Shown here in pieces: positions 1-43,615 of a stretch of DNA of 64,000 nt. This DNA comes from a virus (lineage: Duplodnaviria > Caudoviricetes). The DNA lies in the IMG/VR virus record IMGVR_UViG_3300021197_002039, positions 1,518 to 65,517 of that record. One strand, given 5' to 3'. Both the position numbers and the translations under genes were made by a program. Below the pieces are notes generated by a model. It was not told the DNA's origin. It ran no database searches and saw only the letters and a program-made list of their open reading frames with translations. Each line of letters begins with the position of its first letter. Position 1 is the stretch's first letter.

Positions 1-173
1 CCCAGGTAATTGTGGCCTTCGTTGACCACTACCGGTTGTCCGTTGCCTATGTCACAGACCCAACCCATCGGACCTATCATCACAGCCTTGCCCTTGCAGG
101 TCTGTCCTTGCTCGTTCTCGTACCAGACCCTGTCACCCTTCTGTATCTCGTCAAATAATTCATCCGTCCACAT
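1..173 (-). CDS. Hypothetical protein, runs off the window edge
   Basis: ATG at 173 overlaps the stop of the upstream ORF; open frame MWTDELFDEIQKGDRVWYENEQG... continues to base 1. Confidence 0.65.
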   Translation of the reverse strand, partial: MWTDELFDEIQKGDRVWYENEQGQTCKGKAVMIGPMGWVCDIGNGQPVVVNEGHNYL

Positions 174-391
174 TATACACTCTCCCCTAATGGATTGTCT
201 TTTGGATAGTTGGATCCATCCCAATCATCCTCATCGTACTCTTCCTCGTTGATGAAAAACTCATTGGAGTGAGCCATGTCCGCCACGTCATCCTCTGACA
301 TATACTTCAGGCACGACATTATGACAGTATCCCGGTCCAGGATACCTTCCTCAACCATCTCTAATATCTTGTTGGTCGCTTGTCTCGTCAT
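173..391 (-). CDS. Small acidic hypothetical phage protein
   Basis: 72 aa ORF, stop/start-coupled on both sides. Confidence 0.75.
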   Translation of the reverse strand: MTRQATNKILEMVEEGILDRDTVIMSCLKYMSEDDVADMAHSNEFFINEEEYDEDDWDGSNYPKDNPLGESV

Positions 392-1056
392 TATGCCTCC
401 TCCCCTATGTTCATCGCTTGACCTTTAACATACTCATGGACATCTTCTTTTTCTGCTTCTTGTTCTGCTTCGTACTCCGCCATAGACTCCGTGATGTTGA
501 AAACATCATCCAGGGTAGAACCTACGCCATCCTGCCAAAAGTCATCTGTTGATTTGTAATCACTTGGAGCATAACAATCGTCAACACCATCATTCCACTC
601 GCCCATGAAATCACAGCCACCTTCATAATAAAATGCCCTCACGGAACAATCGGAATTATTCTCCAAGAACTTCTCATAAGCATTGATTGGTGGTGCCCAG
701 GCCGAACTGAATCCAAACGATATAGTGGATTCGCCCTCGCTCTGTTCTGAATGATATTGTCTGTCCACACCATAGAATTCACATACTTCCCATTTGGTAG
801 ACCAATTGTTCACTCTCCAATCGTACCAATTTTCTGCTCCGAACTCTAACTTCCTAGACTTCCTTGCATTTTTCTCCGCCTTAGTCTTTGCTATCGGACC
901 TGCTTCTGTGTCTAACATCACCTTAGGCATTGGATGGAAGAATTGTAATAATCCATTTTCTGCATTATTACTTTCTTCTTTTACAATCTTCTCTATCTTG
1001 TCTATCACGGAATTCGGACCCGTGATAGATAGTTGATTATCGCACCAATTAGGCAT
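391..1056 (-). CDS. DUF1281/YubB-like ferredoxin-fold protein
   Basis: MPNWCDN start, WYDWRVNNWSTKW and FSSAWAPP motifs typical of this phage/MGE family; SD AAGGAGG upstream. Confidence 0.7.
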   Translation of the reverse strand: MPNWCDNQLSITGPNSVIDKIEKIVKEESNNAENGLLQFFHPMPKVMLDTEAGPIAKTKAEKNARKSRKLEFGAENWYDWRVNNWSTKWEVCEFYGVDRQYHSEQSEGESTISFGFSSAWAPPINAYEKFLENNSDCSVRAFYYEGGCDFMGEWNDGVDDCYAPSDYKSTDDFWQDGVGSTLDDVFNITESMAEYEAEQEAEKEDVHEYVKGQAMNIGEEA

Positions 1057-1345
1057 CAACCGCCTCCTTGGATTTGATTAAAGTAAGATGAGATCCTGGA
1101 ACATTCCATCTCTGACCTCTGTCAGTTCTCACCAACACATATTTGATCTTAACTTTTTCAACAGTACCGGTTTCTGTGACACCGTGTCTGCCTTGGAACG
1201 ATACTCTATCATTGAATTTCAAATTATGAGCATCTGTGAAGTGTAATTGATTTCTTCTCAATTTCACCGCTTCTACAACTTTGTTCAATTCATCATTGTT
1301 CAATACATAGATGTCTTGAATCATTTTGTTCAACTTCATATACAT
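1049..1345 (-). CDS. Hypothetical protein with SH3-like C-terminal barrel
   Basis: 98 aa; DRVSF..GTVEKVKIKYVLVR..WNVP pattern; SD AAGGAG. Confidence 0.65.
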   Translation of the reverse strand: MYMKLNKMIQDIYVLNNDELNKVVEAVKLRRNQLHFTDAHNLKFNDRVSFQGRHGVTETGTVEKVKIKYVLVRTDRGQRWNVPGSHLTLIKSKEAVDA

Positions 1346-1378
1346 TTTTTCAACTCCTTTTTTGGTTAATGTATATTC

Positions 1379-1406
1379 AGTATATATTGGATTGGTAATG
1401 CGTCAA
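1379..1406 (-). promoter_or_regulatory. Sigma70-type early promoter, leftward
   Basis: TTGACG-N16-TATACT on the minus strand. Confidence 0.7.
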
Positions 1407-1447
1407 CCTCCTGTAGAAGTCGCATAGAATGGAGTGTTTTTAAGACA

Positions 1448-1495
1448 TGACTATATCTAGTAGTTGGTCTTGCCAAGTGGCACTAGATGATGTCG
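1448..1495. promoter_or_regulatory. Pair of NrdR-box-like operators between divergent promoters
   Basis: TGACTATATCTAGTAG (1448) and GCACTAGATGATGTCG (1480), 32 bp start to start; resemble the consensus acaCwAtATaTwGtgt. Confidence 0.5.
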
Positions 1496-1522
1496 GCATT
1501 ATATTATATATACATCACCAGG

Positions 1523-1550
1523 TTGACCCAATCCAGATCCATGCTATACT
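1523..1550 (+). promoter_or_regulatory. Sigma70-type early promoter, rightward
   Basis: TTGACC-N16-TATACT; like the leftward promoter it is flanked by AGG 5-prime and GAAT 3-prime. Confidence 0.7.
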
Positions 1551-1573
1551 GAATTATGAACAAAGGAGTTGAA

Positions 1574-1963
1574 ATGCAGAAAATAGATTATACAAATAAA
1601 CACGACATCATGGTAGGATATATTGACAGAAGTCAGAATATTTGTGCCGTTCAAACAGGATGGAAGACAACGCCAGAAGAGATGGCAAAAATTTTAGATA
1701 GGAAATATCCAACAAAAGAAGATTCAATCAAAGTTGTAGATTCGCCTGTTCTAATTCCTACATTTAGAAAAGAAGACTATTGGGGAGTTGAAGGATTTGG
1801 TGATGTAATTGAATCAAACCTTTCTTGGCACAAGGAAGTTATGAGAAAAAAAGTTGGTCATTTGTTCTGCCACATGACAGGAGTTTGGAAATATTCAGAC
1901 AATGGTATTGACTGGACGCCTATCAGAGAAGAATTCGCAGAAGAGTTCAAGGAGGTTGCTTAA
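1574..1963 (+). CDS. Hypothetical early protein
   Basis: Start moved to MQKIDY after SD AAGGAG. Confidence 0.7.
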   Translation: MQKIDYTNKHDIMVGYIDRSQNICAVQTGWKTTPEEMAKILDRKYPTKEDSIKVVDSPVLIPTFRKEDYWGVEGFGDVIESNLSWHKEVMRKKVGHLFCHMTGVWKYSDNGIDWTPIREEFAEEFKEVA

Positions 1964-2220
1964 TGTCAGTTGAATTACAGACAAAATCCATAGACGAGAT
2001 CTACGAGGACATGATAGACCAATACACCAAAGGTGAATACCTAGATGGCTGTACCTCTTATGGTGAGGATGCCCTGATGGGTCCGGACAAGTTCGCAGAC
2101 AGATTCCAACACATCTGTTTCGGATTCGGATACAGGGAGGCGGAGATCATACCAGCGAAGAACGAGATCAGAGAATGGTGCCAAGAACACTTGAGCCATT
2201 TGGAAAGCAAGTTTAGATAG
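1963..2220 (+). CDS. Hypothetical protein
   Basis: TAATG coupling, SD AGGAGG. Confidence 0.75.
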   Translation: MSVELQTKSIDEIYEDMIDQYTKGEYLDGCTSYGEDALMGPDKFADRFQHICFGFGYREAEIIPAKNEIREWCQEHLSHLESKFR

Positions 2221-2427
2221 ATGATCATAGAAACCGTATTCGGCCTGCTGTTATCATTCGCCAGTGCCGGTGAGACTGCCAATACCAGCACCAAGGTACT
2301 ATCCGCATTGAACACCACATCGAAGATCATAAAGAAGACCGAGAACAAGGAGATGGATGACAGCATCCATGAAGAATTACATCAAATGACAAAAGACTTT
2401 ATCTTTAAAATAGGAGATCTAAAATGA
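2221..2427 (+). CDS. Small hypothetical protein with N-terminal hydrophobic segment
   Basis: Abuts both neighbours; IETVFGLLLSFASA. Confidence 0.6.
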   Translation: MIIETVFGLLLSFASAGETANTSTKVLSALNTTSKIIKKTENKEMDDSIHEELHQMTKDFIFKIGDLK

Positions 2428-2660
2428 CTATACACGAAACACATAAACACCATTTCCAGGTTGCAGACATAGGTGACTGGGATTTGGACCAAGACAGAAG
2501 CATCGTACCAAGTATTCATTCTAGCCTAAAGCGACAGGGCATAGAGGGAGTGGTAGATGGAGACGAGATGAACAATGCCTCATTCACCATTTGGACTTAT
2601 AGTCCTAGAGATGTTGTAGCAGAAGCCTTAAAGGCCGATGGTATCGAACTAGAAGATTAA
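2424..2660 (+). CDS. Hypothetical protein
   Basis: ATGA overlap, SD AGGAG. Confidence 0.7.
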   Translation: MTIHETHKHHFQVADIGDWDLDQDRSIVPSIHSSLKRQGIEGVVDGDEMNNASFTIWTYSPRDVVAEALKADGIELED

Positions 2661-3182
2661 TTACTTTTTAGGCCTTACAATTTTAGATTTGACTGGTGCT
2701 CTGGCACCTGTTCTTTTGGCCACCGATTTGCCCTTGTTGGACCTCTTCTTGATCTGGGCACCTTTCAATCTCAGAGAACCTGCTCCTGATCTCTTGGTCT
2801 GTGCCATTTTCTTGCCTGCTATCTTGGCCTTGGCCTGTCTCTTCGCCCTTATCTTCGCACCCTTGACAGGGTCTCTTCTAGCGAAACAGGTGCTGGGTTT
2901 GGCCACGATACGACCTTTCCTTGGACCTGATGAGCATCTGAAACCTTGCTTGACTGAACCTTTCTTGGCACGCCTCAGGATCTGGCTGACGCCCTCCGCA
3001 ATGGCCGAATGGTCTGGATGTTCCTCGATGGTGTCAACCTCCAGTGCCGAGGTATTTTCTGACACTATATCTTGTGGCACTACATCTTGTGTTTGGTCTA
3101 CCTTAATGGCACTAGATGTTGTGACACTAGATGTTGTGTCTTGTGATTTGGTTGGCACTAAGGTGATTTCCGTGATCTTCAT
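2661..3182 (-). CDS. Basic Lys/Arg-rich late protein, probable internal head or DNA-binding protein
   Basis: MKITEI N-terminus, acidic S/T linker, FRCSSGPRKGRIVAKPSTC core, K/R-rich tail; TATAAATA 5 nt upstream of ATG. Confidence 0.65.
   Translation of the reverse strand: MKITEITLVPTKSQDTTSSVTTSSAIKVDQTQDVVPQDIVSENTSALEVDTIEEHPDHSAIAEGVSQILRRAKKGSVKQGFRCSSGPRKGRIVAKPSTCFARRDPVKGAKIRAKRQAKAKIAGKKMAQTKRSGAGSLRLKGAQIKKRSNKGKSVAKRTGARAPVKSKIVRPKK
3062..3139. promoter_or_regulatory. Cluster of four NrdR-box-like 16-mers inside a CDS
   Basis: ACACTATATCTTGTGG (3062), GCACTACATCTTGTGT (3077), GCACTAGATGTTGTGA (3109), ACACTAGATGTTGTGT (3124). Confidence 0.6.
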
Positions 3183-3224
3183 ACAGGTATTTATAGACCT
3201 TACACCTAACTATACTAAACCTTA

Positions 3225-3272
3225 CTGATGCTTAAACTGATGCTTAAACTGATGCTTAAACTGATGCTTAAA
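3225..3272 (+). repeat. Tandem repeat, 4 x 12 bp CTGATGCTTAAA
   Basis: Four perfect head-to-tail copies in an intergenic gap between divergent genes. Confidence 0.95.
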
Positions 3273-3358
3273 CCTAAGAACTGATAACATTTTGTTACGG
3301 GTGCTACATTCTGCACAAGATCAACTTGACATGGACGTATGTGTTAAATACACATGCA

Positions 3359-3595
3359 ATGAAGATATTCGAGATATACAACACAGACGAGAACATAGGA
3401 CCAGCGCCAACCAGTGCCTGTAGCAGGCCAGCAAAGGATCTACCTGCGTCATGGATATCGTCATGCAAGTCACAGGGCAAACGAAAACGTACCGGTAACA
3501 GAAGTGAGAAGATCGGTGGCAAGACAATGAAGGTCAGTGGCAAACGTATCAAAGGCCGTAAGTACGGTGGACCTCTGCCAGACTACTCAAAATAA
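3359..3595 (+). CDS. Small basic late protein
   Basis: MKIFEI start after TAAATA; K/R/G-rich; ends GGPLPDYSK. Confidence 0.7.
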   Translation: MKIFEIYNTDENIGPAPTSACSRPAKDLPASWISSCKSQGKRKRTGNRSEKIGGKTMKVSGKRIKGRKYGGPLPDYSK

Positions 3596-3612
3596 TCTAA
3601 AAAATCAAAGAC

Positions 3613-4584
3613 CTAATAGCGAGCCAATAGCGAGCCTTCTCGGTATAGGTCCTGCGTGACGCAGTGTACACCACCATCCCAGAACCATCTGTGCCTGAAA
3701 GGGGTGATCACGGGTGTTATGTTGTGCTTCTCAAGGAAGTCGAACACCTGTTTGTTATAGTTGTTGACTAGTATGGTGTTGGTGTCTATGGATAGCATGT
3801 TGACTTCAAACACTGTCTCCTCCACGTAGCCCACCCAATCTTTGAAGTAGGTTTCCACGTACTCTGAGAAGTCGTCGCTGTCCTCCTCACCTGGAACCCA
3901 CCACTTGCCTCCGTTCTTCTGTTTGACCTTACGGAACGGAGACATCTGATCCCAGTACTTGTCTTCCAGATAGCATATATCCCATCCAGGGAACTTCTCC
4001 TCGTAGTTCTGTATATCAAACAGTGTTACTATGCAACCAGGCTTGGGCACACACCAGGTGCAGTCTCCGTGTCCCTCGTGTTTCATCACATCAACGTTGA
4101 AGCCTTCATTGGTCCATTGTTGCTGATATTCTTTTACCAACGCACTGTCTCTCCAAGTGGGTTTGTTGGTGCCCCAGTGAAGTTCGTTGCCTAACCTGTG
4201 TATGAAACTGGTGCTGATCAACTTCTGCTGTTCACAGTCCTTAACGATTACTTTGTTTTCCACCCTGTCCAACAATGATTTGTATTCGGGTCTGTTGTTG
4301 TTGACGTACAGTGTTTCCCCTATCACTGCCATGTCATCCCTGGGTTGGTTCGCAGGCCTATGAATGGTGTCCGTTTCTACTATGTCAGGACGCAGTGTTT
4401 CCACACCGGACTTGTTCAACACATCACATAGGTTCTGGTAGTCCTCCTCTGTCTCATCCAATATCTTGAACAATATATCTTTTACTTTTTGATTCTTTAT
4501 TTCCCTGAACTGCTCTTTGTTGTAGGTCCTGCCAACCAAACAGGTCTTGAGTTTGTCGAATGTGGAATACCCTTTTACCTTCAT
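3613..4584 (-). CDS. Amidinotransferase (pentein; glycine/inosamine amidinotransferase-like)
   Basis: QPRD, GHGD and C-terminal DGGVHCVTQDL catalytic Cys motif. Confidence 0.8.
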   Translation of the reverse strand: MKVKGYSTFDKLKTCLVGRTYNKEQFREIKNQKVKDILFKILDETEEDYQNLCDVLNKSGVETLRPDIVETDTIHRPANQPRDDMAVIGETLYVNNNRPEYKSLLDRVENKVIVKDCEQQKLISTSFIHRLGNELHWGTNKPTWRDSALVKEYQQQWTNEGFNVDVMKHEGHGDCTWCVPKPGCIVTLFDIQNYEEKFPGWDICYLEDKYWDQMSPFRKVKQKNGGKWWVPGEEDSDDFSEYVETYFKDWVGYVEETVFEVNMLSIDTNTILVNNYNKQVFDFLEKHNITPVITPFRHRWFWDGGVHCVTQDLYREGSLLARY

Positions 4585-5165
4585 AGTATCTGTATGTCTC
4601 TCACATCTGGGTATGGCTTGTATCGGTGTTCGAAGTCTCCGGCAGATATGTAGTTGTCAAGTAAAAGTGTTGCACTCTCACACTCCTCGTATCTCATCAT
4701 GTAATGGAATCCTTGCTTGAATACTTTCTGGTCTATCCATCTATCATAGGACGGGTCTCTTCCATCATAGCTCATCATCTTAAGTTGCCTGTAGTGTTCT
4801 TCGTTGTCCAATAGTATCGCCCCACCTCTGACATTGTCTAAGGGTTTGCTGTGACCAAAACTTAGACACTGGTATTGCTTCGGTCTGTACATGTTGGGCT
4901 TCAAACATCTGGCACTGTCCCAGACAGGTGTGCCCAAGAACTGGTACTCGTCCTTCCATGGTGTGATTGAAAGTTCATACTCAACTCCTAGCAGTTCCAT
5001 GGTCATTGGGATACTGATGTAGGTGAAAGACGAGAAACGGCACGTCTTGATCTCCAATAGCCTGAAACATAATTCAATTGCGTGGGTGCAACAGTCAGTG
5101 GTCACCACGTAAGGTGCACCTGTAAAGTCTGCTAAATTATTTTCAAATGTTTCTACCGATCCCAT
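4581..5165 (-). CDS. Short DegT/DnrJ/StrS PLP-dependent sugar aminotransferase-like protein
   Basis: FENNLADFTGAPYVVTTDCCTHAIEL, DSAR, LSFGHSKPL (PLP Lys), GGAIL; only about 194 aa. Confidence 0.75.
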   Translation of the reverse strand: MGSVETFENNLADFTGAPYVVTTDCCTHAIELCFRLLEIKTCRFSSFTYISIPMTMELLGVEYELSITPWKDEYQFLGTPVWDSARCLKPNMYRPKQYQCLSFGHSKPLDNVRGGAILLDNEEHYRQLKMMSYDGRDPSYDRWIDQKVFKQGFHYMMRYEECESATLLLDNYISAGDFEHRYKPYPDVRDIQIL

Positions 5166-5190
5166 ACTTTGATAATTATCTACATATATT

Positions 5191-5748
5191 ATGAAGTACA
5201 CCTACTCTGACTGGAATAACAAGCAAGGTACAATACCTGTAAATTGGCAACCTAAACACTACGAAGACCTTCCATGGTACGAGAATCCAGACAAGGATCA
5301 AGGGTTTTCAACTTCAAAGGAAAACTATCAAATTTACAAAGAACGAGTAGGTTGTTTAATACCAAAGTTTGAACACGTAGGTAAAGGTATCTTCATACCA
5401 GAAGATGTAGACAAAATATTTGGATATGTGCTTGATTACTTTGATCTCCAGTCTCCGGTTTATGCTTTCGCAAAGTATAAGCCTGGACTTCTACTGCCAT
5501 GGCATAAGGATAACTATCCCACCTATGCCAAAAATAAAAAAGCCGAAGTTCAAAACATAGCAAGAGTAATGATATTCTTGCATGATCCTGCACCCGGACA
5601 CCAACTATGGATTGAGGATAAGTTTTGTTCTGGTCCAGCAGGTTCTTGGTTCAGTTGGCATGGTGCGACTAAGCACATGGCCGCGAACCTAGGCGAAACA
5701 GATAGATATGTGATACAGATTACTGGGATAGTGCCGCAAACATCTTAG
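5191..5748 (+). CDS. 2OG-Fe(II) oxygenase-like protein (Asp/Asn beta-hydroxylase-type cupin)
   Basis: PWHKD ... HMAAN ... RYVIQITG facial-triad pattern. Confidence 0.65.
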   Translation: MKYTYSDWNNKQGTIPVNWQPKHYEDLPWYENPDKDQGFSTSKENYQIYKERVGCLIPKFEHVGKGIFIPEDVDKIFGYVLDYFDLQSPVYAFAKYKPGLLLPWHKDNYPTYAKNKKAEVQNIARVMIFLHDPAPGHQLWIEDKFCSGPAGSWFSWHGATKHMAANLGETDRYVIQITGIVPQTS

Positions 5749-6337
5749 AACACCATTCTCTGTTTTGCTCTGTTGTCATGTGATTACTCAAAGATATGTC
5801 AAACTTGAATCCGGCCTTGGGTATTTTTCCGCCCCATGCGAACTCGAGCATACTTTCGTCTAAGAATTTTCCGCTTGTCAATTTGATGACACTCCTTCTT
5901 CCTACCAACTCAAAAGGTTTCATGCTCCATGTTTGCAGTATTTGTTTTTTGTTATCAGCGAGGACATGTCTGTCAAACCATTGCAAGGCGTAACTGTAGG
6001 CAAGTTCTTCTTTTCTATAATTTTGTAGGTAAACATAATACATGTCAGCGGCCTTATACACTTGTTCGTCTTCTCCAGGTATTGGCACTGCTCCCTTGGC
6101 GATTGGCAATCTCGGATGATATAACCTGTATGGTTCAGTCCAACAAAAAACAGAGATGTCCGGTAGCGTGTTCTTTTCTTTTAATCTTTCATATTGCATG
6201 AAAGTTTTCCAGATGCTGGCTCCCCCACTCCCCCAGTGCACCACTTCGGCATTCAACTTGTCTGCAAGAAGTACACACCAACTGTCTTTTGCTCGACTTT
6301 CGCAAAAACTATCGCCGAAGTAACCAATTTTAATCAT
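5720..6337 (-). CDS. SGNH/GDSL hydrolase-like protein
   Basis: YFGDSF block I, GSGGAS block II, C-terminal NHM. Confidence 0.65.
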   Translation of the reverse strand: MIKIGYFGDSFCESRAKDSWCVLLADKLNAEVVHWGSGGASIWKTFMQYERLKEKNTLPDISVFCWTEPYRLYHPRLPIAKGAVPIPGEDEQVYKAADMYYVYLQNYRKEELAYSYALQWFDRHVLADNKKQILQTWSMKPFELVGRRSVIKLTSGKFLDESMLEFAWGGKIPKAGFKFDISLSNHMTTEQNREWCSKMFAALSQ

Positions 6338-7265
6338 AATTATCCCATTGAATTGCCCGCTTCCAGTTGTTTGTCTCAAAGTGTTGTTTGTTGTGTTCAA
6401 GCACATCTATTAATTGTTCATGGACATCAACCGGATCTAACATAGATAATTTATACATGGAATCTAACGCGGCGCTCCATCTTTGTTCTTTGTCTTCTAT
6501 ATTGTCGTAATTTTCGTCAATTACCTTGTCAAACGTCCTGAAACCAAGCGAACGGAATGCTTCTAGGTGTCGCATTGCCCCAAACATAACAAAAGGCCTC
6601 TTTGCTATGATAGGCTTGGCTTCTTTCTCACTGAACATGGCAAAGTCATTGTGTATCGTTGTTTCTATCATTGCAGTATATTGGGTTTGGTTATAGATAT
6701 CGGGATCAATTATGTCACTGAATCTTATTTGTGTCTTGCGTTTGTCTCCAATTGTCTCCGCCGTGTGTACACTAGGTCTCATCACTGTCCAATGTCCTTT
6801 TCCAGTGTCCCTTCCAAAGTATGTCAAGAAAGTTTTAGATTTGACCTTATGTTCACTAATCATACTGTACAAAAGATCCTTGTTGTCACTTGTCTCTCCT
6901 AAAAGTAAGTCCCAGACCTTGTTGTTTGTCTTTTTGTTACAATTAAGAAGTTGTGAAAGTATTTGTTTACACTTTTCGTTTTTTTGATACAACAACGGAC
7001 CTGTCATGAACATGTCATTTGTATAGTTGAAAGATGTCTCACATTCTTTCAGAGGGACAAGGTTAGATTCGAAAGTAATAGGTTTTCCTTTGAATTCATT
7101 CATAAAGTCTACAACGGTCTTCCAATAACCATGCTCTTGATACATGATGCCAGGTTGTAGCAACTTCACTACCACGGAATCATTTGATTGAAGAGCCTCG
7201 ATAATTTTCTGTCTTAGCAGGATCACTTCATCAGTATTACCTGCGTCTGAGTGGATGATTTTCAT
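6330..7265 (-). CDS. Putative glycosyltransferase-like phage protein
   Basis: IET..FSEKEAKPIIAKRPFVMFG..LRSLGFRTF motif; paralog of 18489..19526. Confidence 0.5.
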   Translation of the reverse strand: MKIIHSDAGNTDEVILLRQKIIEALQSNDSVVVKLLQPGIMYQEHGYWKTVVDFMNEFKGKPITFESNLVPLKECETSFNYTNDMFMTGPLLYQKNEKCKQILSQLLNCNKKTNNKVWDLLLGETSDNKDLLYSMISEHKVKSKTFLTYFGRDTGKGHWTVMRPSVHTAETIGDKRKTQIRFSDIIDPDIYNQTQYTAMIETTIHNDFAMFSEKEAKPIIAKRPFVMFGAMRHLEAFRSLGFRTFDKVIDENYDNIEDKEQRWSAALDSMYKLSMLDPVDVHEQLIDVLEHNKQHFETNNWKRAIQWDNYD

Positions 7266-7304
7266 AAACCTATTTAATGATAATATGCGCCTTTAAATAC
7301 AAAC

Positions 7305-8219
7305 ATGAAAGTATCTATTAGGAATGAATATGGTAATTTGAAATCGGTCATCGTTGGCAGTGTCACAAACATGGCTTGGCCATCAGACGACGACAAATTC
7401 AACAAAGGAATACAGAAATCAACCTATCCTACAACCCTTTTGCGAGGTAAACTTCCTGGCGTTGTGAGTCAAGAAGCCGCTGAAGATCTTGAAAAACTTG
7501 TGAACATACTTGAAAATAGAAAAATAAAAGTTTACAGGCCATTAACTAATAAACCACATTGGGCCTACTCTGCCAGAGATATATTGCTGACGATAGGCAA
7601 CAAAGTGATACAATGCCCAACACCATTCTCAAGCCGTGCAGACGAAATAGAGATGTATCCTTTTCTATACAAAGCAGATGCTGAAATTATCAAGGCACCG
7701 AGTCCAATAAAAGATTCAGATCCATACTTTGATGCCGCCAATGTTCTCAAGTTAGGAGACAAACTGCTCTACTCACTCTCACACTCGGCCAATGACGCAG
7801 GTGCAGACTGGTTACAGCAACAGGTGGGCAACGAACACGAAGTTATAAAATGGAGTGTCGTGGACCACGATATCACACACATCGATTCTACACTGTTGAC
7901 TCTTAACGAGAACACTGTTATAGTTAATGCAACAAGAGTAAAAGAACAAGATTTGCCACAGTTTATGCGAGATTATAAAAAAATATGGATTGAAGATGTG
8001 GTGCCACGAGACTTCCATCAGTTTCCTTATGCATCTAAATGGATAGGAATGAATATCCTTTCTATTGATCCTGAAACTGTGTTGGTGGATGAAATACAAA
8101 CAGGACTGAAAGAAAAACTTGAGGCCAACAATTTTAAAGTGATTACAACATCAATGAGACAATCAAGGACACTGGGTGGAGGATTCCATTGTGTCACTTG
8201 TGATTTGGAGAGAGAATAA
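7305..8219 (+). CDS. Glycine/inosamine-phosphate amidinotransferase-like protein
   Basis: SARD, FDAANV, THIDST, WIGMNILS, GGGFHCVTCDL (Asp-His-Cys triad). Confidence 0.88.
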   Translation: MKVSIRNEYGNLKSVIVGSVTNMAWPSDDDKFNKGIQKSTYPTTLLRGKLPGVVSQEAAEDLEKLVNILENRKIKVYRPLTNKPHWAYSARDILLTIGNKVIQCPTPFSSRADEIEMYPFLYKADAEIIKAPSPIKDSDPYFDAANVLKLGDKLLYSLSHSANDAGADWLQQQVGNEHEVIKWSVVDHDITHIDSTLLTLNENTVIVNATRVKEQDLPQFMRDYKKIWIEDVVPRDFHQFPYASKWIGMNILSIDPETVLVDEIQTGLKEKLEANNFKVITTSMRQSRTLGGGFHCVTCDLERE

Positions 8220-12052: not shown

Positions 12053-12482
12053 CAGCATCCTTCTTCCTACGGAACTTGATGTGTTCGTAGTCTATGATGT
12101 GTACGTTTAATGGACCACCATGCTGTTGCATAATGCGTTCTGTGTCCAATGGTCTGATTGTTATCCTATCCTCTTCTGGCAACTTGGCATTGTAACCCCA
12201 GAACATGGGCCACCAGTGTAGAGGATTGAGGGAATAAAATTTCTCTTTCATTATCAACAGGAACACGAAAGGCAATATTGTAAGAGGTTCCGCCCACCAA
12301 ACAATGGCATCAAACGTAAGCCAGTCTATGAGATGTATTGCACCTGTCCACACACTCCATATGGCTAACAGTATGCCCATCATTGGCCAGAATTCGCCGT
12401 CTAGGTCATCTATGTCGTGATCGTGGTGCCTGTAGGTCCTGTACATGATAAATTTCTGTTGACTCTTAGGACTCAGTTTCAT
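12027..12482 (-). CDS. Hypothetical membrane protein
   Basis: Two Trp-rich hydrophobic segments; C-terminal KFRRKKDAVIFGLR. Confidence 0.65.
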   Translation of the reverse strand: MKLSPKSQQKFIMYRTYRHHDHDIDDLDGEFWPMMGILLAIWSVWTGAIHLIDWLTFDAIVWWAEPLTILPFVFLLIMKEKFYSLNPLHWWPMFWGYNAKLPEEDRITIRPLDTERIMQQHGGPLNVHIIDYEHIKFRRKKDAVIFGLRYF

Positions 12483-12575
12483 ATAATATTACTTAACACA
12501 AGAATAATTAATAACACATATTTTGTTGTAACGCTCCCAAGGAAGTTCACAGCAATAACCCCCAAATCAAATATT

Positions 12576-14012
12576 ATGGAACTTGCTATATTAATGGCGG
12601 GTATTGTTTACGGCTTGATCATTGGCCTAATACCAGCCGCGGGAGCAACAACAGGTCTTATCACACTATTTGGAGTCATGCCTTACTTCGTAGGAGATCC
12701 CTACCTGGGCGTGATATTCTGTGTGGCAGTTGTGGCATCCTCAACAACCGGTGATTCGTTCAGTGGTGTGCTACTAGGCATACCCGGAGCCAACTCCGCG
12801 GCCGCAACAATGGTGGATGGATTCCCCATGGCCAAAAACGGAGAGGCCACACGAGCATTGAGTGCCGCTATAACATCAAGCACAGCAAATGGTCTGTTTT
12901 GGGGATCACTAACATTTTTATTCCTGCCATGGTACACTAAGGTTGTTATGTACATGGGCATACCTGAGCTCTGGGCATTGGTGCTGTTGGCATTTGTCAC
13001 CGTGGGATTCGTTTCAACTAGGAAATATGTCCGAAGCACACTAGCCATTGTACTTGGAGTCACAATAGGACTGGTTGGTGTTGATGTAAACAATGTGCCT
13101 CGTTTCACGATGGGTTGGAGATATCTCGAGGACGGTGTACAGATATTGCCTTTCGTTGCAGGACTTTTTGCCATACCAGAACTTTGGAATGGATGGTTCA
13201 ATAGAAAAACTACAACAACAATCAAAGCAGAACACGGCAGTTGGCACGACCTTAAACAAGGAATGAAAGATACTGTCAGATGTTGGAAGGACAGCATCAG
13301 GGGAGGAGCCATAGGTTCTTTCATAGGACTTCTACCTGGACTGGGTGGAGCGATGGCGGACTGGTTGGCGTATGGTGCAACGGTGGCGGCCAATCCCAAA
13401 GAGAAGTTTGGAAATGGAAACGTCAAGGGCGTGATAGGTGCCGAGGGTGCCAACAACGCACAGAAGGCCTCGTCATTCATTCCAACAGTTCTGTTTGGTA
13501 TACCTGGTGCAAGTTTCGCCGCGATACTGATGGGACTATTCTTGTACCTGGGCATTGACCTGGGATCACCTGATACATTTTACGACGACAGATTATTTGA
13601 CAGCATGACTTTTGCTTTCTTGTTAGGAACAATCATCACTGCTGTCATTTGTTATGGACTGGCATATTTCGCAGGGTGGGTAACACGTATTCCATATGTG
13701 TACTACTTTCCTTTCATACTTGCTGTGATTGTTTGGGCAACCTTGCAGTACACAGGCGGGTGGGAAGACCTTGCGGTACTTGTAGCATTCTCTATAATGG
13801 GACTGCTATGTAAAAAATTCCAAGTCAGCAGGCCAGCACTGCTGATAGGGTACCTGTTGAGTGACAGGATATACAATCTCACTTATCAACTAACCTCCCT
13901 ACACACAGTAAACGATATGATAACAAGACCGATCTTTATTTTTATAATGATCTGTGTTATACTATTACTGTATTGGGGAATAACAAAACGGAGTAGACTA
14001 GACTATGCTTAA
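12576..14012 (+). CDS. tctA: Tripartite tricarboxylate transporter large subunit TctA
   Basis: GLIPAAGA, LLGIPG...DGFPMAKNGEATRAL, GLLPGLGG, AEGANNA, FGIPG; about 12 TM segments; start at MELAIL. Confidence 0.88.
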   Translation: MELAILMAGIVYGLIIGLIPAAGATTGLITLFGVMPYFVGDPYLGVIFCVAVVASSTTGDSFSGVLLGIPGANSAAATMVDGFPMAKNGEATRALSAAITSSTANGLFWGSLTFLFLPWYTKVVMYMGIPELWALVLLAFVTVGFVSTRKYVRSTLAIVLGVTIGLVGVDVNNVPRFTMGWRYLEDGVQILPFVAGLFAIPELWNGWFNRKTTTTIKAEHGSWHDLKQGMKDTVRCWKDSIRGGAIGSFIGLLPGLGGAMADWLAYGATVAANPKEKFGNGNVKGVIGAEGANNAQKASSFIPTVLFGIPGASFAAILMGLFLYLGIDLGSPDTFYDDRLFDSMTFAFLLGTIITAVICYGLAYFAGWVTRIPYVYYFPFILAVIVWATLQYTGGWEDLAVLVAFSIMGLLCKKFQVSRPALLIGYLLSDRIYNLTYQLTSLHTVNDMITRPIFIFIMICVILLLYWGITKRSRLDYA

Positions 14013-28275: not shown

Positions 28276-29298
28276 CTATTTCTCTCCACAGGCGTGATAA
28301 CACCCCTGTAACCTTTTGTCGCTACCATTGATTCCACTCTCGAGATCTTTGAAAAAATCTCCCTCTAAAATATCTTTCAGGTCTGTGTAGTGTAGATTTA
28401 TCTTGTTGTAATCTTTTATTATATGTTTGGGTTCATTCCTTTCGACATCTCCCAATATACAGCAAGGGCTCACGTAACCATTTGCACGTAGATAGATTTC
28501 ACGTTTGTGAGGCTGACATGCCAAGCACATTATTTTCCTTGTTAGGAAGTTGTCCTTTTCTTGTTTTTCTTCTGTTACAAAAACATTCTTACTTTTGGTC
28601 CAATTGTCGTCCTTGATAAAATCTTCTTTTTGCTCGACAGGTTTTTCGATGACATATCCATCTACTTCCAGTGAGGTTATGTCTCTGTATTGACCATTAC
28701 TGTTGAAGTCCTGCCAACGTTCACTGAAGGTGTGATTGAATGAATTGAATCCCAACTCCGTAGACAATGCCTTTGCTTCATCTATTTGGTGTTGATTGTG
28801 TTTGAAAACAAGCATATCCCATCTAGCCTCACCTCCGTTGTCAATATAAGTTTTAACATTATCCATTAAGTTTTTCCACTTGACGTTCCTGCGATATAAA
28901 TGATTTGTGTCTTCCAGACCGTCTATACCAAATGTAATTCTCACACCTAGTTTGGCCATGGATTTCCAGAAGTCTCTGTTCCTCGCCCCACCGTTTGTGT
29001 GCATTAAGATCTTCATGCTGGGATTTATTTCTCGAAGGTATTTGAATATATCAACGGTCTCTGGATTCATCGAAGCGTCGCCATACGTGCCTTGACATGT
29101 CCATTGTTTCAGTCTAGATATGATTCCTTTATCAATCTTTTCTTTAACAAACTCTAGTGTCGTGTGGTGTGCATTTGTAACACCTTTCACTAGATTTAGA
29201 TCCCAATCAAATCTATTGCACATGGGACAGGCCGCGTTGCAATAGTCAGTCATTTCAGCCATGATGTGAGTTAGATTATCAGTTGTAATATATGACAT
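28276..29298 (-). CDS. Radical SAM protein with C-terminal SPASM/twitch domain
   Basis: CNAACPMC, GTYGD, HTNGG, FGIDGLEDTNHLYR (paralog of 9376..10257), SPCC, CYHAC. Confidence 0.88.
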   Translation of the reverse strand: MSYITTDNLTHIMAEMTDYCNAACPMCNRFDWDLNLVKGVTNAHHTTLEFVKEKIDKGIISRLKQWTCQGTYGDASMNPETVDIFKYLREINPSMKILMHTNGGARNRDFWKSMAKLGVRITFGIDGLEDTNHLYRRNVKWKNLMDNVKTYIDNGGEARWDMLVFKHNQHQIDEAKALSTELGFNSFNHTFSERWQDFNSNGQYRDITSLEVDGYVIEKPVEQKEDFIKDDNWTKSKNVFVTEEKQEKDNFLTRKIMCLACQPHKREIYLRANGYVSPCCILGDVERNEPKHIIKDYNKINLHYTDLKDILEGDFFKDLESGINGSDKRLQGCYHACGEK

Positions 29299-29318: not shown

Positions 29319-30023
29319 ATGAAGTTTACCAAAGAAGTTTTAAAACACAAAGGAATAACGTATTACCAGAAGTATCCGTATGGCGAACTGTCCAGGGTAA
29401 CGAAGAACAAGAAAAGACATTACGAAACACCGGACGGAAGAGCAGTACCCAGTGTGACCACAGTGCTGTCAGCCACCAAAGATATGACACACCTACACGC
29501 ATGGCGCAAGAGGATTGGTGCAGAGAAGGCACAACAGATCACGACAGAGAGTGCCAACATAGGAACGGTAATGCACCGTAGCCTAGAGAAGCATGTGAAG
29601 GGAGAGGACAGGACTCCTGGATCTAATCTCATACAGCAGAAGGCACACACGATGGCCAATGTCATAATAGACAACGGCTTGAACAATGTCTCAGAAGTGT
29701 GGGGATCAGAGGTTTCACTGTACTATCCAGAACTGTATGCGGGCACCACGGACCTGGTTGGTGTTTACAAAGGTGCTCCTGCAATCATGGACTTCAAACA
29801 GGCAAGACGTCTTAAAAAAAAGGAATGGGTGGAGGACTACTATCTCCAATTAGTAGCATACGCAGAAGCACACAACAAACAGTACGACACACAGATAAAG
29901 ACTGGCCGTATATTCATATGCACACAGGCCAACGAATATCAAACGTTTGACATTGACAACTACGATCACTGGGTAGGCAAGTGGTATGCAAAATTGGAAC
30001 AATACTACAAGCAAATACTTTAA
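29319..30023 (+). CDS. PD-(D/E)XK exonuclease
   Basis: PSVTTVL, GTVMH, SEV.L, YAGTTD, IMDFK, QLVAYA. Confidence 0.85.
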   Translation: MKFTKEVLKHKGITYYQKYPYGELSRVTKNKKRHYETPDGRAVPSVTTVLSATKDMTHLHAWRKRIGAEKAQQITTESANIGTVMHRSLEKHVKGEDRTPGSNLIQQKAHTMANVIIDNGLNNVSEVWGSEVSLYYPELYAGTTDLVGVYKGAPAIMDFKQARRLKKKEWVEDYYLQLVAYAEAHNKQYDTQIKTGRIFICTQANEYQTFDIDNYDHWVGKWYAKLEQYYKQIL

Positions 30024-31777: not shown

Positions 31778-34186
31778 ATGGATACAACAAAAACAAAAAT
31801 CAAAAATAAAAATTACAAATATTTAATGCCAAGCACCAACTCAAGTACGATCAAAGTTCAGAAAAGAGATGGCAAGTTGGAGAACCTTGACATAAACAAA
31901 ATCCATTTCGTCGTTGAAGAGGCATGTGAAGGCCTGTCAGGGGTCAGTTCATCACAGATAGAGATGAACGCCAACATACAGTTCTATGATGGCATGACAA
32001 CCAAAGACATCCAGAATGTTTTAGTGCGTTCAGCGAATGACTTGATAAGTCTTGAAGCACCCAACTATCAATATGCGGCGGCGAGACTGCTTTCGTATGA
32101 TGTAAGGAAGGAAGCACACGGCCAGTACGAGTACATTCCGTTATTGAAACTTATTCTAAGGAACATAAGACTAGGTGTGTATGACAAGGGCATACTGGAC
32201 AAGTATTCAAAGACAGAAATAAAGAAATTCAACACATGGATAAAGAGAGAAAGAGATCTAAAATTCACTTACGCAGGACTTAGACAGATCTGTGACAAGT
32301 ATCTTGTACAGGACAGGAGCACAGGACAACTGTATGAGACTCCACAGGACATGTACATGATGATCGCGGCAACACTGTTCGCGGAGTATCCTACAAAGAA
32401 CAGAATGAGTTATGTTAAGAAATATTATGATGCGATATCACTACACAAAATTAATATCCCAACCCCAGTGATGGCAGGAGTGAGAACACCCATCAGACAG
32501 TTCGCCAGTTGCGTTCTAGTGGACAGTGATGACACCCTACCAAGTATCTTCTCAAGCGACATGGCTATTGGTTTGTACGTTGCCAGGAGAGCTGGCATAG
32601 GAATCAACGCAGGACGTATCAGAGGTATCAACAGCAAGATCAGGGGAGGGGAGGTTCAACACACAGGAGTCATCCCGTTCCTAAAGAAATTCGAATCAAC
32701 CGTGAGATGTTGTACACAGAATGGTGTGCGTGGCGGAAACGCAACTGTACACTTCCCAATATGGCATCCAGAGATAGAAGACATCCTTGTGCTTAAGAAC
32801 AACAAAGGCACAGAGGACAACAGGGTAAGACGTATGGATTACTCCATACAGATCAGTAAAATGTTCTATGAGAGATTCATGAACGAGGAAGACATAACAT
32901 TAATATCACCACATCAGGCACCTGGACTGTATGATGCATTTGGAACAGATGAGTTCGATGACTTGTACTTGAAGTATGAAGCGGACAAAACAATTCCAAA
33001 GAAAACTGTTCCAGCACAGGATCTATTCTTTGACCTGTTGAAGGAGAGAGCAGAGACAGGCAGGATCTACATAATGAATCTTGACCACTGCAACTCACAC
33101 AGTTCATTCAAAGACAAAGTTTCGATGAGTAACCTGTGTCAGGAGATCACGTTACCCACAACACCCATACAGGACATACATGATGAGCAGGGAGAGATCG
33201 CATTGTGCATCCTTTCAGCGGTCAATGTTGGTGGACTGAATGATTTAAGTGAACTGGAGAACATATGTGACCTTAGTGTTAGGGCACTGGAACAGATAAT
33301 TGACTACCAAGACTATCCAGTCAAGGCCGCGGAAGTTTCAACAAAGAAGAGAAGAAGTCTAGGAATTGGTTACATCGGACTGGCACACTACATCGCAAAA
33401 CATGGCGTCAAGTATTCAGATCCAAAGGCGTGGGATCTAGTTGACAGACTTTCAGAAGCATTCCAATACAACCTATTGAGAGCGAGTTGCAACATAGCAA
33501 TGGAGAAAGGCAAGTGTGAAGGATTTGAGAGAACAAAATACGCAGACGGCCTGCTACCAATTGATCACTACAAGAAGGATGTGGACAACATAGTACCACA
33601 TAAACAGAGAATGGCATGGGAGAGCCTAAGGAAAGACATAGCCAAGCATGGATTGAGACACAGCACACTGTCAGCACAGATGCCAAGTGAGAGCAGTTCA
33701 GTTGTTAGTAATGAGACAAACGGTATCGAACCACCAAGGGCATTGATGGCCATCAAGAAAAGCAAGAAAGGTCCTCTGAAGCAGATAGCACCGGGGTTCC
33801 CCAAACTTAAAAATGATTACACACTGCTATGGGACATGCCAAGCAACGAGGGTTACATCAACGTGGTAGCCATGATGCAGAAATATTTTGATCAAGCGAT
33901 CAGTGGTAACTGGAGTTACAATCCATTACAGTTCGAGAACAACGAAGTACCTCTGTCAGTGATGGCACAGGACATGCTGACAGCATACAAACTTGGTTGG
34001 AAGACAAGTTACTACCAAAACACATACGATTTCAAAGGGGAGGAAGAAGACGTACAACCGGCAGGAATAGAAACACAGCAGGAGGACGAAGGTGAGGATG
34101 TTATACTAGAGCCCGAAAATCCAGCACCGGAAATAAGTACAACCACAGACATCGACGGCGAAGAGTGCGACGCCTGTATGATCTAA
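31778..34186 (+). CDS. nrdA: Class Ia ribonucleotide reductase alpha subunit with ATP cone
   Basis: VQKRDG ATP cone, QFASC, SNLCQEI, MPSESSS, KTSYY, C-terminal CDAC. Confidence 0.97.
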   Translation: MDTTKTKIKNKNYKYLMPSTNSSTIKVQKRDGKLENLDINKIHFVVEEACEGLSGVSSSQIEMNANIQFYDGMTTKDIQNVLVRSANDLISLEAPNYQYAAARLLSYDVRKEAHGQYEYIPLLKLILRNIRLGVYDKGILDKYSKTEIKKFNTWIKRERDLKFTYAGLRQICDKYLVQDRSTGQLYETPQDMYMMIAATLFAEYPTKNRMSYVKKYYDAISLHKINIPTPVMAGVRTPIRQFASCVLVDSDDTLPSIFSSDMAIGLYVARRAGIGINAGRIRGINSKIRGGEVQHTGVIPFLKKFESTVRCCTQNGVRGGNATVHFPIWHPEIEDILVLKNNKGTEDNRVRRMDYSIQISKMFYERFMNEEDITLISPHQAPGLYDAFGTDEFDDLYLKYEADKTIPKKTVPAQDLFFDLLKERAETGRIYIMNLDHCNSHSSFKDKVSMSNLCQEITLPTTPIQDIHDEQGEIALCILSAVNVGGLNDLSELENICDLSVRALEQIIDYQDYPVKAAEVSTKKRRSLGIGYIGLAHYIAKHGVKYSDPKAWDLVDRLSEAFQYNLLRASCNIAMEKGKCEGFERTKYADGLLPIDHYKKDVDNIVPHKQRMAWESLRKDIAKHGLRHSTLSAQMPSESSSVVSNETNGIEPPRALMAIKKSKKGPLKQIAPGFPKLKNDYTLLWDMPSNEGYINVVAMMQKYFDQAISGNWSYNPLQFENNEVPLSVMAQDMLTAYKLGWKTSYYQNTYDFKGEEEDVQPAGIETQQEDEGEDVILEPENPAPEISTTTDIDGEECDACMI

Positions 34187-43257: not shown

Positions 43258-43559
43258 AGTGGTCCGTTCTGTTGCAAGGTGGACCATTCCCCTGAAATTA
43301 TTGGTTATTACGCCGCTAATCTCAATTCAGACATACCAACTGTTAAGTCAGCAAATCCTAATGCTTTTTTGTTTGCATTTAAAAAACAGCCTGATTAGGT
43401 CAGTGCCATCACCAAGTTCTCGTAACAAGTTTAGACGTCGATCGATTCCAATAACACCCCCGGAAGGGATTACATAAGCCACCAAGTAATAAATTGGTGG
43501 AGGTGGCGAGATTTGAACTCGCGTCTCGTCCGCTTATTAATTGTTAGTCAACAAACTTA
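43258..43559 (-). ncRNA. ssrA: Circularly permuted two-piece tmRNA
   Basis: Minus strand order: acceptor piece ending GCGAG-TTCAAAT-CTCGC-CACCTCC-A-CCA (3-prime end 43495), 33-nt intervening segment, coding piece starting GGGGGTG (43461) giving G3:U70; tag frame 43376..43308 ANKKALGFADLTVGMSELRLAA-stop; terminal GGTCC..GCAACAGAA..GGACC hairpin. Confidence 0.92.
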
Positions 43560-43565
43560 AATGTA

Positions 43566-43594
43566 ATTATACCTGAAGGTTGACGTATTGTCAA
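43566..43594 (-). promoter_or_regulatory. Consensus sigma70 promoter for the tmRNA
   Basis: TTGACA-N17-TATAAT on the minus strand, overlapping a divergent TTGACG-N17-TAAATT. Confidence 0.85.
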
Positions 43595-43615
43595 CTTTGT
43601 GCTAAATTAGTGTAT

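Follow-up and report, generated by a model that had tools for sequence, protein, structure and literature searches.

NrdR is characterised, in abstracts and in the parts of a 2026 mutational study on which we draw (PMC13584703), as a repressor specific to ribonucleotide reductase genes. According to the same parts of that study, an NrdR box is 16 base pairs (bp) long with C4, A6, A8, T9, T11 and G13 highly conserved, and binding requires two boxes joined by a linker of 15-16 bp whose sequence is irrelevant. Portions of a second study (PMC12051234) report that NrdR binds well when the spacer is 14-18 bp, with binding peaking again at 24-27 bp, and that it kinks the DNA sharply at each box, and both sources describe DNA binding as the act of a tetramer that is loaded with deoxyadenosine triphosphate (dATP) plus ATP, and of no other form. 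NrdR proteins from distant bacteria bind each other's sites: those of Escherichia coli and Streptomyces coelicolor accept heterologous boxes, and both bind a synthetic consensus box (PMC13584703). Here, we describe NrdR-type boxes in a 64,000-nucleotide (nt) stretch of DNA from an uncultured marine virus of the Caudoviricetes, hereafter the window, which comprises bases 1518-65517 of the 65.5-kilobase (kb) IMG/VR record IMGVR_UViG_3300021197_002039 (CheckV completeness ~20%). Judged by sequence, the sites are genuine NrdR-type operators, which the phage lineage maintains on its own DNA.

A pattern search of the whole record gave eight boxes in three modules that together span ~4.7 kb. Six of them, the 16-mers starting at 3062, 3077, 3109, 3124, 1448 and 1480, had been reported in a preliminary description of the window, and all six were recovered at those positions. 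The boxes, which carry no strand, are as follows, in window coordinates unless the record is named.

3062..3077, outer box, 12/12 core, abutting the inner box at a 15-bp period.
3077..3092, inner box of the in-gene array, 12/12 core.
3109..3124, inner box of the in-gene array, 12/12 core, partner of 3077-3092 across a 16-bp spacer.
3124..3139, outer box, 12/12 core, abutting the inner box at a 15-bp period.
1448..1463, box A of the weak pair, 6/6 conserved positions, 10/12 core.
1480..1495, box B of the weak pair, degenerate, 5/6 positions (T11 replaced by A), 10/12 core, 16-bp spacer.
Record 459-474 and 490-505, third pair, outside the window and ~1 kb before its start, 15-bp spacer, both boxes 6/6.

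Seven of the eight boxes have all six highly conserved positions, the exception being that at 1480. The boxes at 3062, 3077, 3109 and 3124 each match the core CACWANATNTWGTG at 12/12 positions, and a further match just outside the window brings the perfect cores of the record to five. The spacers measure 15 bp (record 459/490) and 16 bp (3077/3109 and 1448/1480), such that the phage boxes follow the six-position rule and are set in twos at the 15-16 bp linker length, within the tolerated 14-18 bp. The reverse complement of 3124-3139 is identical at 15/16 positions to the synthetic consensus box of PMC13584703.

We compared these counts with those from dinucleotide-preserving shuffles of the record. 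The five perfect 12/12 cores stand against a mean of 0.04, and none of 500 shuffles reached five. Strict pairs, defined as all six positions in both boxes and a spacer of 14-18 bp, number two against a mean of 0.023 (0/1000 shuffles reach two). Weaker criteria returned background: 18 sites against 19.1 expected for the six-position pattern alone, 15 against a mean of 16.7 for sites matching 10/12 of the core, and four against 2.05 expected for the IUPAC consensus ACACWATATATWGTGT with at most three mismatches, a number reached by 17/100 shuffles. The enrichment is therefore limited to perfect cores and pairs. Taken singly, the boxes at 1448 and 1480 are at background, and they are credible because they lie 32 bp apart and their region is homologous to 3079-3122 (44 nt, 77% identical), which confirms the duplicated module of ~48 bp proposed in the preliminary description. 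The motif does not appear to resemble sites of CRP/FNR, LexA, Fur or CtrA. A further weak pair at 29145/29187 (29145-29202; 5/6 and 6/6 positions, 26-bp spacer) was left uncounted since its cores, at 10/12, are background. It lies in the 5' end of gene 28276..29298, ~120 bp upstream of gene 29319..30023, and ~2.6 kb upstream of the phage reductase gene nrdA, whose strand gene 29319..30023 shares.

As a positive control, a pattern made of a perfect core, a gap and a six-position centre, with at most one mismatch, was run on five alphaproteobacterial genomes (~9 Mb). It gave two matches, both directly upstream of reductase genes (NrdD; NrdI-NrdE), while the reversed pattern gave one. On the 65.5-kb phage record the pattern found two pairs and its reverse none. 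Thus, the pattern that picks out the phage pairs marks nrd operators in Alphaproteobacteria and recovers little else. The NrdR-type identity put forward in the preliminary description is borne out by the published rules, the shuffle statistics, this bacterial control and the conservation of synonymous sites in 15 phages, to which we now turn.

The four boxes of the in-gene array lie within one gene.

2661..3182, minus strand, gene of a 173-amino-acid (aa) protein whose C-terminal half is very basic, 14 homologues.

The homologues are on distinct IMG/VR contigs and share 62-81% identity; 13 are full length and one, from contig L087, is cut by the contig end. The 173-aa reading frame is thus a real gene, for whose product ESM Atlas gives virus-only clusters of hypothetical proteins. 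The boxes occupy codons 15-40, 43-120 nt downstream of the ATG. Two are read C-ACA-ACA-TCT-AGT-G, giving TTSS, and the other two CA-CAA-GAT-GTA-GTG, giving QDVV, so that the motif appears in two reading frames, as TTSS and as QDVV/QDIV. The preliminary description had attributed to boxes in the 5' coding region an odd TTSSVTTSS/QDVVPQDIV linker.

Comparison of the 15 phages shows that the inner pair (3077-3092 and 3109-3124) keeps 6/6 positions in 15/15, with a spacer of exactly 16 bp in all. The outer boxes are less constant: 3062-3077 has 6/6 positions in 11/15 phages and 3124-3139 in 8/15, the other 7/15 having G at position 6. Boxes are kept at synonymous positions as well. The Ser-Ser pairs within boxes are encoded by TCT (15/15 and 14/14) followed by AGT (15/15 and 11/15), and the in-box codons for Gln (CAA), Asp (GAT) and Val (GTG) are each invariant at 15/15. 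Outside the boxes the codons vary: Gln column 30, two codons upstream of the invariant in-box CAA, is divided between CAA (4) and CAG (10), and in Ser columns the most frequent codon accounts for a fraction of 0.33-0.58. On average, the major-codon fraction is 0.923 over the 16 box columns versus 0.728 over the 117 others (Mann-Whitney p = 1e-5, an indicative rather than an exact value because the columns come from related sequences). Amino-acid changes are found where the box leaves the base free, such as V/I/L at position 10. Two reading frames and constrained synonymous codons argue that the DNA motif is selected as well as the peptide, and we read the in-gene array as a DNA signal and not only as a peptide.

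Might the in-gene boxes instead be the by-product of a repeated peptide, with a chance likeness to NrdR sites? The peptide TSSxTxSS...QTQDxVPQDIV is itself conserved, as that explanation would have it, and we nevertheless find it scarcely credible. It is contradicted by the reading of one DNA motif in two frames, by synonymous codons that are frozen exactly at the boxes (CAA 15/15 in the box against a split of 4 to 10 at the Gln two codons upstream), by the enrichment of perfect cores (5 against 0.04 expected) and by the copies of the motif in non-coding promoter cassettes. Three promoters belong to these cassettes and to the weak pair.

Record, outside the window, P1, sigma70-type promoter AGGTTGAC-N17-TATACTGAAT, predicted to drive a 137-aa gene.
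1379..1406, minus strand, P2, early sigma70-type promoter TTGACG-N16-TATACT, 10/12 match, predicted to drive the 98-aa gene 1049..1345.
1523..1550, plus strand, P3, early sigma70-type promoter TTGACC-N16-TATACT, 10/12 match with TG, predicted to drive the small-gene block 1571..2660.

The record 459/490 pair starts 12 nt past the stop codon of the gene before it and ends 11 nt upstream of the P1 -35. This arrangement of box, 15 bp, box, 11 nt and -35 precedes the 137-aa gene in this record and in contigs L077 and L035, and in L034, L084 and L076 it precedes P3-gene homologues. The 11-nt distance between box and -35 is the same in 6/6 copies of the cassette, which may share ancestry. Its presence at two different genes in six records suggests a portable promoter-operator unit.

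P2 and P3 are the two best promoter matches of the region, and they diverge from either side of 1448-1495 (1406 to 1379 on the minus strand and 1523 to 1550 on the plus strand), as expected from the divergent early promoters described previously. Box A of this module has 6/6 positions upstream of 7/13 P2-gene homologues examined. None of the box B homologues has all six positions, and the centre and right half of this box are variable among relatives. No perfect core was found at the loci of 26 relatives at a greater distance (28-50% identity of the neighbour protein). One additional promoter-like sequence over box B (GTGGCA-N17-TATATT, 1477-1505) was rejected, as its 9/12 match is at chance level (10 promoter-like sites versus 6.1 expected). 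No Pfam or PHROG family was found for the genes beside the boxes.

The 5' end of the 173-aa gene is related to the P2 cassette. Its first 50 codons are homologous to the P2 promoter-operator region (3033-3139 versus 1402-1495; repeats D3 and D8) and include a relic of the promoter.

3033..3040, minus strand, -35 remnant AGGTTGAC inside the 173-aa gene, without a usable -10, homologous to the P2 -35 (repeat D8: 13 nt, 92% identical).

The remnant is translated as EVD. A conserved promoter inside the gene was ruled out, since AGGTTGAC at 3040-3033 has no -10 and is deleted in 6/15 relatives. The 5' end of the 173-aa gene appears to have been built from a regulatory cassette, or to have been the donor of one. 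The start of the gene has a different element.

3180..3193, minus strand, TAAATA-N5-ATG element at the start of the 173-aa gene, kept in contigs L086, L087 and L091.

TAAATA-N5-ATG occurs nine times in the window against 0.91 expected, and 0/100 shuffles reach nine. This suggests a second promoter class, which would yield leaderless messenger RNAs. The class resembles the late promoters of T4, and we refer to the 173-aa gene as late in that sense.

Upstream of this element, four perfect tandem copies of a 12-bp unit lie at 3224-3271, ~30-80 bp upstream of TAAATA and separated from the box array by 86 bp. L086 and L087 have similar repeats, and those of L091 are of the same kind but more degenerate. 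They raise the question of whether the boxes serve DNA architecture in replication or packaging instead of transcription, with the 12-bp repeats as possible initiator sites. Such a role would fit the adjacency of repeats and array and the sharp kink that NrdR makes at each box (PMC12051234, in the portion cited above). Against it, the other two modules have no such repeats alongside, the origin role of the repeats is a candidate only, and their place just upstream of a TAAATA-type promoter means that they may simply belong to that promoter. We regard the architectural explanation as very unlikely.

We surveyed core pairs more widely and found 85 on 79 viral contigs. The gap between cores is 16-18 in 73/85, equivalent to a box spacer of 14-16 bp; of the remainder, eight have a gap of 1, four a gap of 19-20 and none a gap of 2-15. 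The gap-1 tandem form is seen in L045 and at loci which either contain the 173-aa gene or lie beside it. Flanking genes were assigned by a crude rule, the longest open reading frame (ORF) of at least 70 aa starting within 300 bp, which gave 115 proteins, or 107 after removal of duplicates, and left 22/85 pairs without an ORF on either side. None of the 107 flanking proteins matched a reductase family; 23 match the small terminase family phrog_83, and several are portal proteins. Contigs L009, L011, L016, L017, L019, L021, L023 and others have a perfect pair with a 14-bp spacer ~100 bp upstream of a 188-aa ORF. This group consists of unrelated viral contigs in which the pair stands just upstream of the small terminase gene; on other contigs the pair stands before portal genes.

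Among 12 unrelated loci inspected by eye, three have a -35 in the linker and a -10 that immediately follows box 2, as in a classic operator. These -35-like and -10-like hexamers lie at L051 83-128, L079 8197-8242 and L038 8829-8873, with box 2 forming the promoter spacer. The pair is thus widespread in unrelated phages, which is better explained by a near-universal factor common to many hosts than by a protein specific to one phage lineage.

The binder could nonetheless be encoded by the phage itself, as an NrdR or as a protein with the zinc ribbon only, which would act independently of the host sensor or compete with it. About 80% of the genome lies outside the record, leaving room for such a gene, and some phage records are annotated with NrdR (PMC8790148, in the part consulted). 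We searched with TIGR00244 and with a profile of five alphaproteobacterial NrdR proteins, on phage records that are fragments of 10-20% completeness. No NrdR homologue was found in this 65.5-kb record, in the whole records of five relatives or in the sampled loci of other relatives. Of 50,697 phage records, just 19 contain full-length NrdR; many of the 19 are short metagenomic pieces, and a marine T4-like phage is not among them. NrdR-like ORFs are present on five viral contigs, L130-L134; two of these, on L131 (~2990-3380) and L133 (~2990-3230), are short proteins which match NrdR residues 1-42 or 3-42 only. Having a zinc ribbon and no ATP-cone, the latter may be nucleotide-blind binders of NrdR boxes or competitors for them. 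On this balance we consider a phage-encoded binder improbable, and the NrdR of the host the most likely protein to bind the sites.

A megablast search of window positions 1-8000 against cultured phages gave no match, and tblastn with the neighbouring 323-aa protein gave only distant matches to marine and Synechococcus phages (28-37% identity). The window encodes a permuted transfer-messenger RNA (tmRNA) of the alpha type at 43258-43598 on the minus strand (Rfam RF01849, 71.6 bits, and RF04321, 96.2 bits), on which ARAGORN agrees, and this suggests that the host is an alphaproteobacterium. When the tmRNA was compared by BLAST with 401 alphaproteobacterial genomes, five short matches of 30-49 nt were returned. 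NrdR was found above the curated cut-off in 267/301 sampled alphaproteobacterial genomes (2 unpublished), which makes a host lineage lacking nrdR unlikely. The window also encodes a full-length TctA-family tricarboxylate transporter subunit (12417-14012, plus strand, Pfam E = 4e-94), whose single match among genome contigs, in Ruegeria atlantica at 36% identity, was not used as host evidence.

The phage has a reductase gene of its own, nrdA, at 31778..34186, which combines an ATP-cone with class I domains and lies ~28 kb from the boxes. A core scan of the record and inspection of the locus found no box upstream of 31778, in accordance with the preliminary description, which had seen no convincing box there. 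The boxes are thus absent from the reductase promoter region, and the genes which flank them have no assigned family. This bears on a possible decoy function, in which the sites would soak up host NrdR as phage DNA multiplies and so derepress the host reductase, whatever their position. Eight boxes within ~4.7 kb and far from nrdA, an array in a coding region without a conserved early promoter, the lack of any overlap with a core promoter, and a site number that would rise with replication all suit a decoy. But the phage has its own class I reductase, with an ATP-cone and without boxes, and so is less reliant on the host enzyme and has less need of a decoy; there are only two strong pairs per 65 kb; the distance from box to promoter is fixed, at 11 nt in the six cassette copies; and unrelated phages have integrated the pair into their promoters. 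Our judgement is that a decoy function is unlikely, on a par with a phage-encoded binder. Titration of NrdR may be a side effect of control in cis, or it may be the main purpose of the sites.

The fixed 11-nt distance, together with the way in which unrelated phages build the pair into promoters, leads us to lean towards control in cis. We propose that host NrdR, loaded with dATP plus ATP, would occupy the phage operator pairs as a tetramer. Bound at the early cassette and in the first 120 nt of the late gene, it would tie transcription of both to the dATP/ATP state of the cell. At the late 173-aa gene it would most likely act as a roadblock just after the start. A precedent for action from downstream of the start is the functional E. 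coli nrdAB site, which is located downstream of the box covering the -10 and start site (PMC13584703). At the cassette, where the sites lie at ~-94 to -48, NrdR might interfere with upstream promoter contacts or block transcription that reads through from the gene before it. We put it at about an even chance that host NrdR with dATP plus ATP binds the inner in-gene pair and the cassette pair, and that these units respond to dATP/ATP.

We also considered a more specific version, in which the phage uses host NrdR as a deoxyribonucleoside triphosphate checkpoint for its own timetable, and in which one sequence, by co-evolution of operator and peptide, carries two codes. As long as dATP is abundant, NrdR on the operator in the first 40 codons would block the late gene from within. 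The product of that gene is basic and probably DNA-associated, and the cassette at the early promoter would be under the same sensor. Once replication drains dATP, or phage DNA outnumbers NrdR, the block would lift. We consider this version rather doubtful.

Several observations weigh against NrdR-dependent control of these genes. L091, the most divergent relative, keeps P1 without the boxes. Classic NrdR operators overlap a core promoter, which is true of none of the three sites; in the cassette, 11 nt separate the boxes from the -35 downstream of them, a less obvious position for repression. The 1448/1480 pair is weak, with a box B that is degenerate in relatives, and the codon statistic above has only the indicative value given with it. 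The genes that would be regulated have no assigned function from which a physiological logic could be read. NrdR falls short of the cut-off in 34/301 sampled alphaproteobacterial genomes, and the record holds ~20% of the phage genome, so that a phage-encoded binder could lie in the remainder. With these points counted, we still infer that NrdR binds the sites, that it comes from the host and that it controls transcription in cis.

If this is true, NrdR would be a route by which viruses read the DNA-precursor state of the infected cell, and would provide abundant marine phages with a simple mechanism for timing replication against packaging. Heterologous binding by the E. coli and S. coelicolor proteins (PMC13584703) means that binding can be tested without culturing the host. 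The in-gene array is, in addition, a clean natural case in which the same bases serve both as regulatory site and as protein-coding sequence, and fifteen genomes reveal which of the two constraints, operator or peptide, wins at each position.

A known locus of the repressor-titration type is E. coli datA, which acts on DnaA. The phage sites share with datA the principle that a cluster of high-affinity sites, distant from the genes under control, could reduce the amount of free regulator. Unlike datA, the phage sites are few and their geometry relative to promoters is fixed, and titration here is a hypothesis.

The bacterial nrd operators, as described in the parts of PMC13584703 and PMC12051234 drawn on here (E. 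coli nrdAB, nrdHIEF and nrdDG; S. coelicolor nrdAB and nrdRJ), are the closest systems. They have the same 16-bp partial palindrome with the same six positions, the same need for two boxes with a 15-16 bp linker, and near-consensus box sequences. They differ in location. The phage sites are on phage DNA, away from reductase genes including the phage's own nrdA, and are placed upstream of a -35 or in a coding region, not over a core promoter. Thus, we regard the phage sites as NrdR operators by sequence and spacing, and not by location, because the defining link to reductase genes is absent.

No paper on NrdR boxes at non-nrd phage genes emerged from a literature search, although the supplementary box collections of PMC12051234 and PMC13584703, which were outside the search, may include phage or prophage sites. 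A parallel to the in-gene array is the Listeria monocytogenes nrdAB promoter, which likewise has four boxes at one locus (PMC12051234, in the portion cited). There, a distal pair stands apart from a proximal one, and each has a 15-16 bp spacer within it. In the phage, each inner box is directly adjoined by an outer box at a 15-bp period (starts at 0, 15, 47 and 62), and the canonical spacing and full conservation are found only in the inner pair. What is new here, relative to these operators, is one embedded in coding sequence and read in two frames, whose synonymous sites are frozen in 15 phages.

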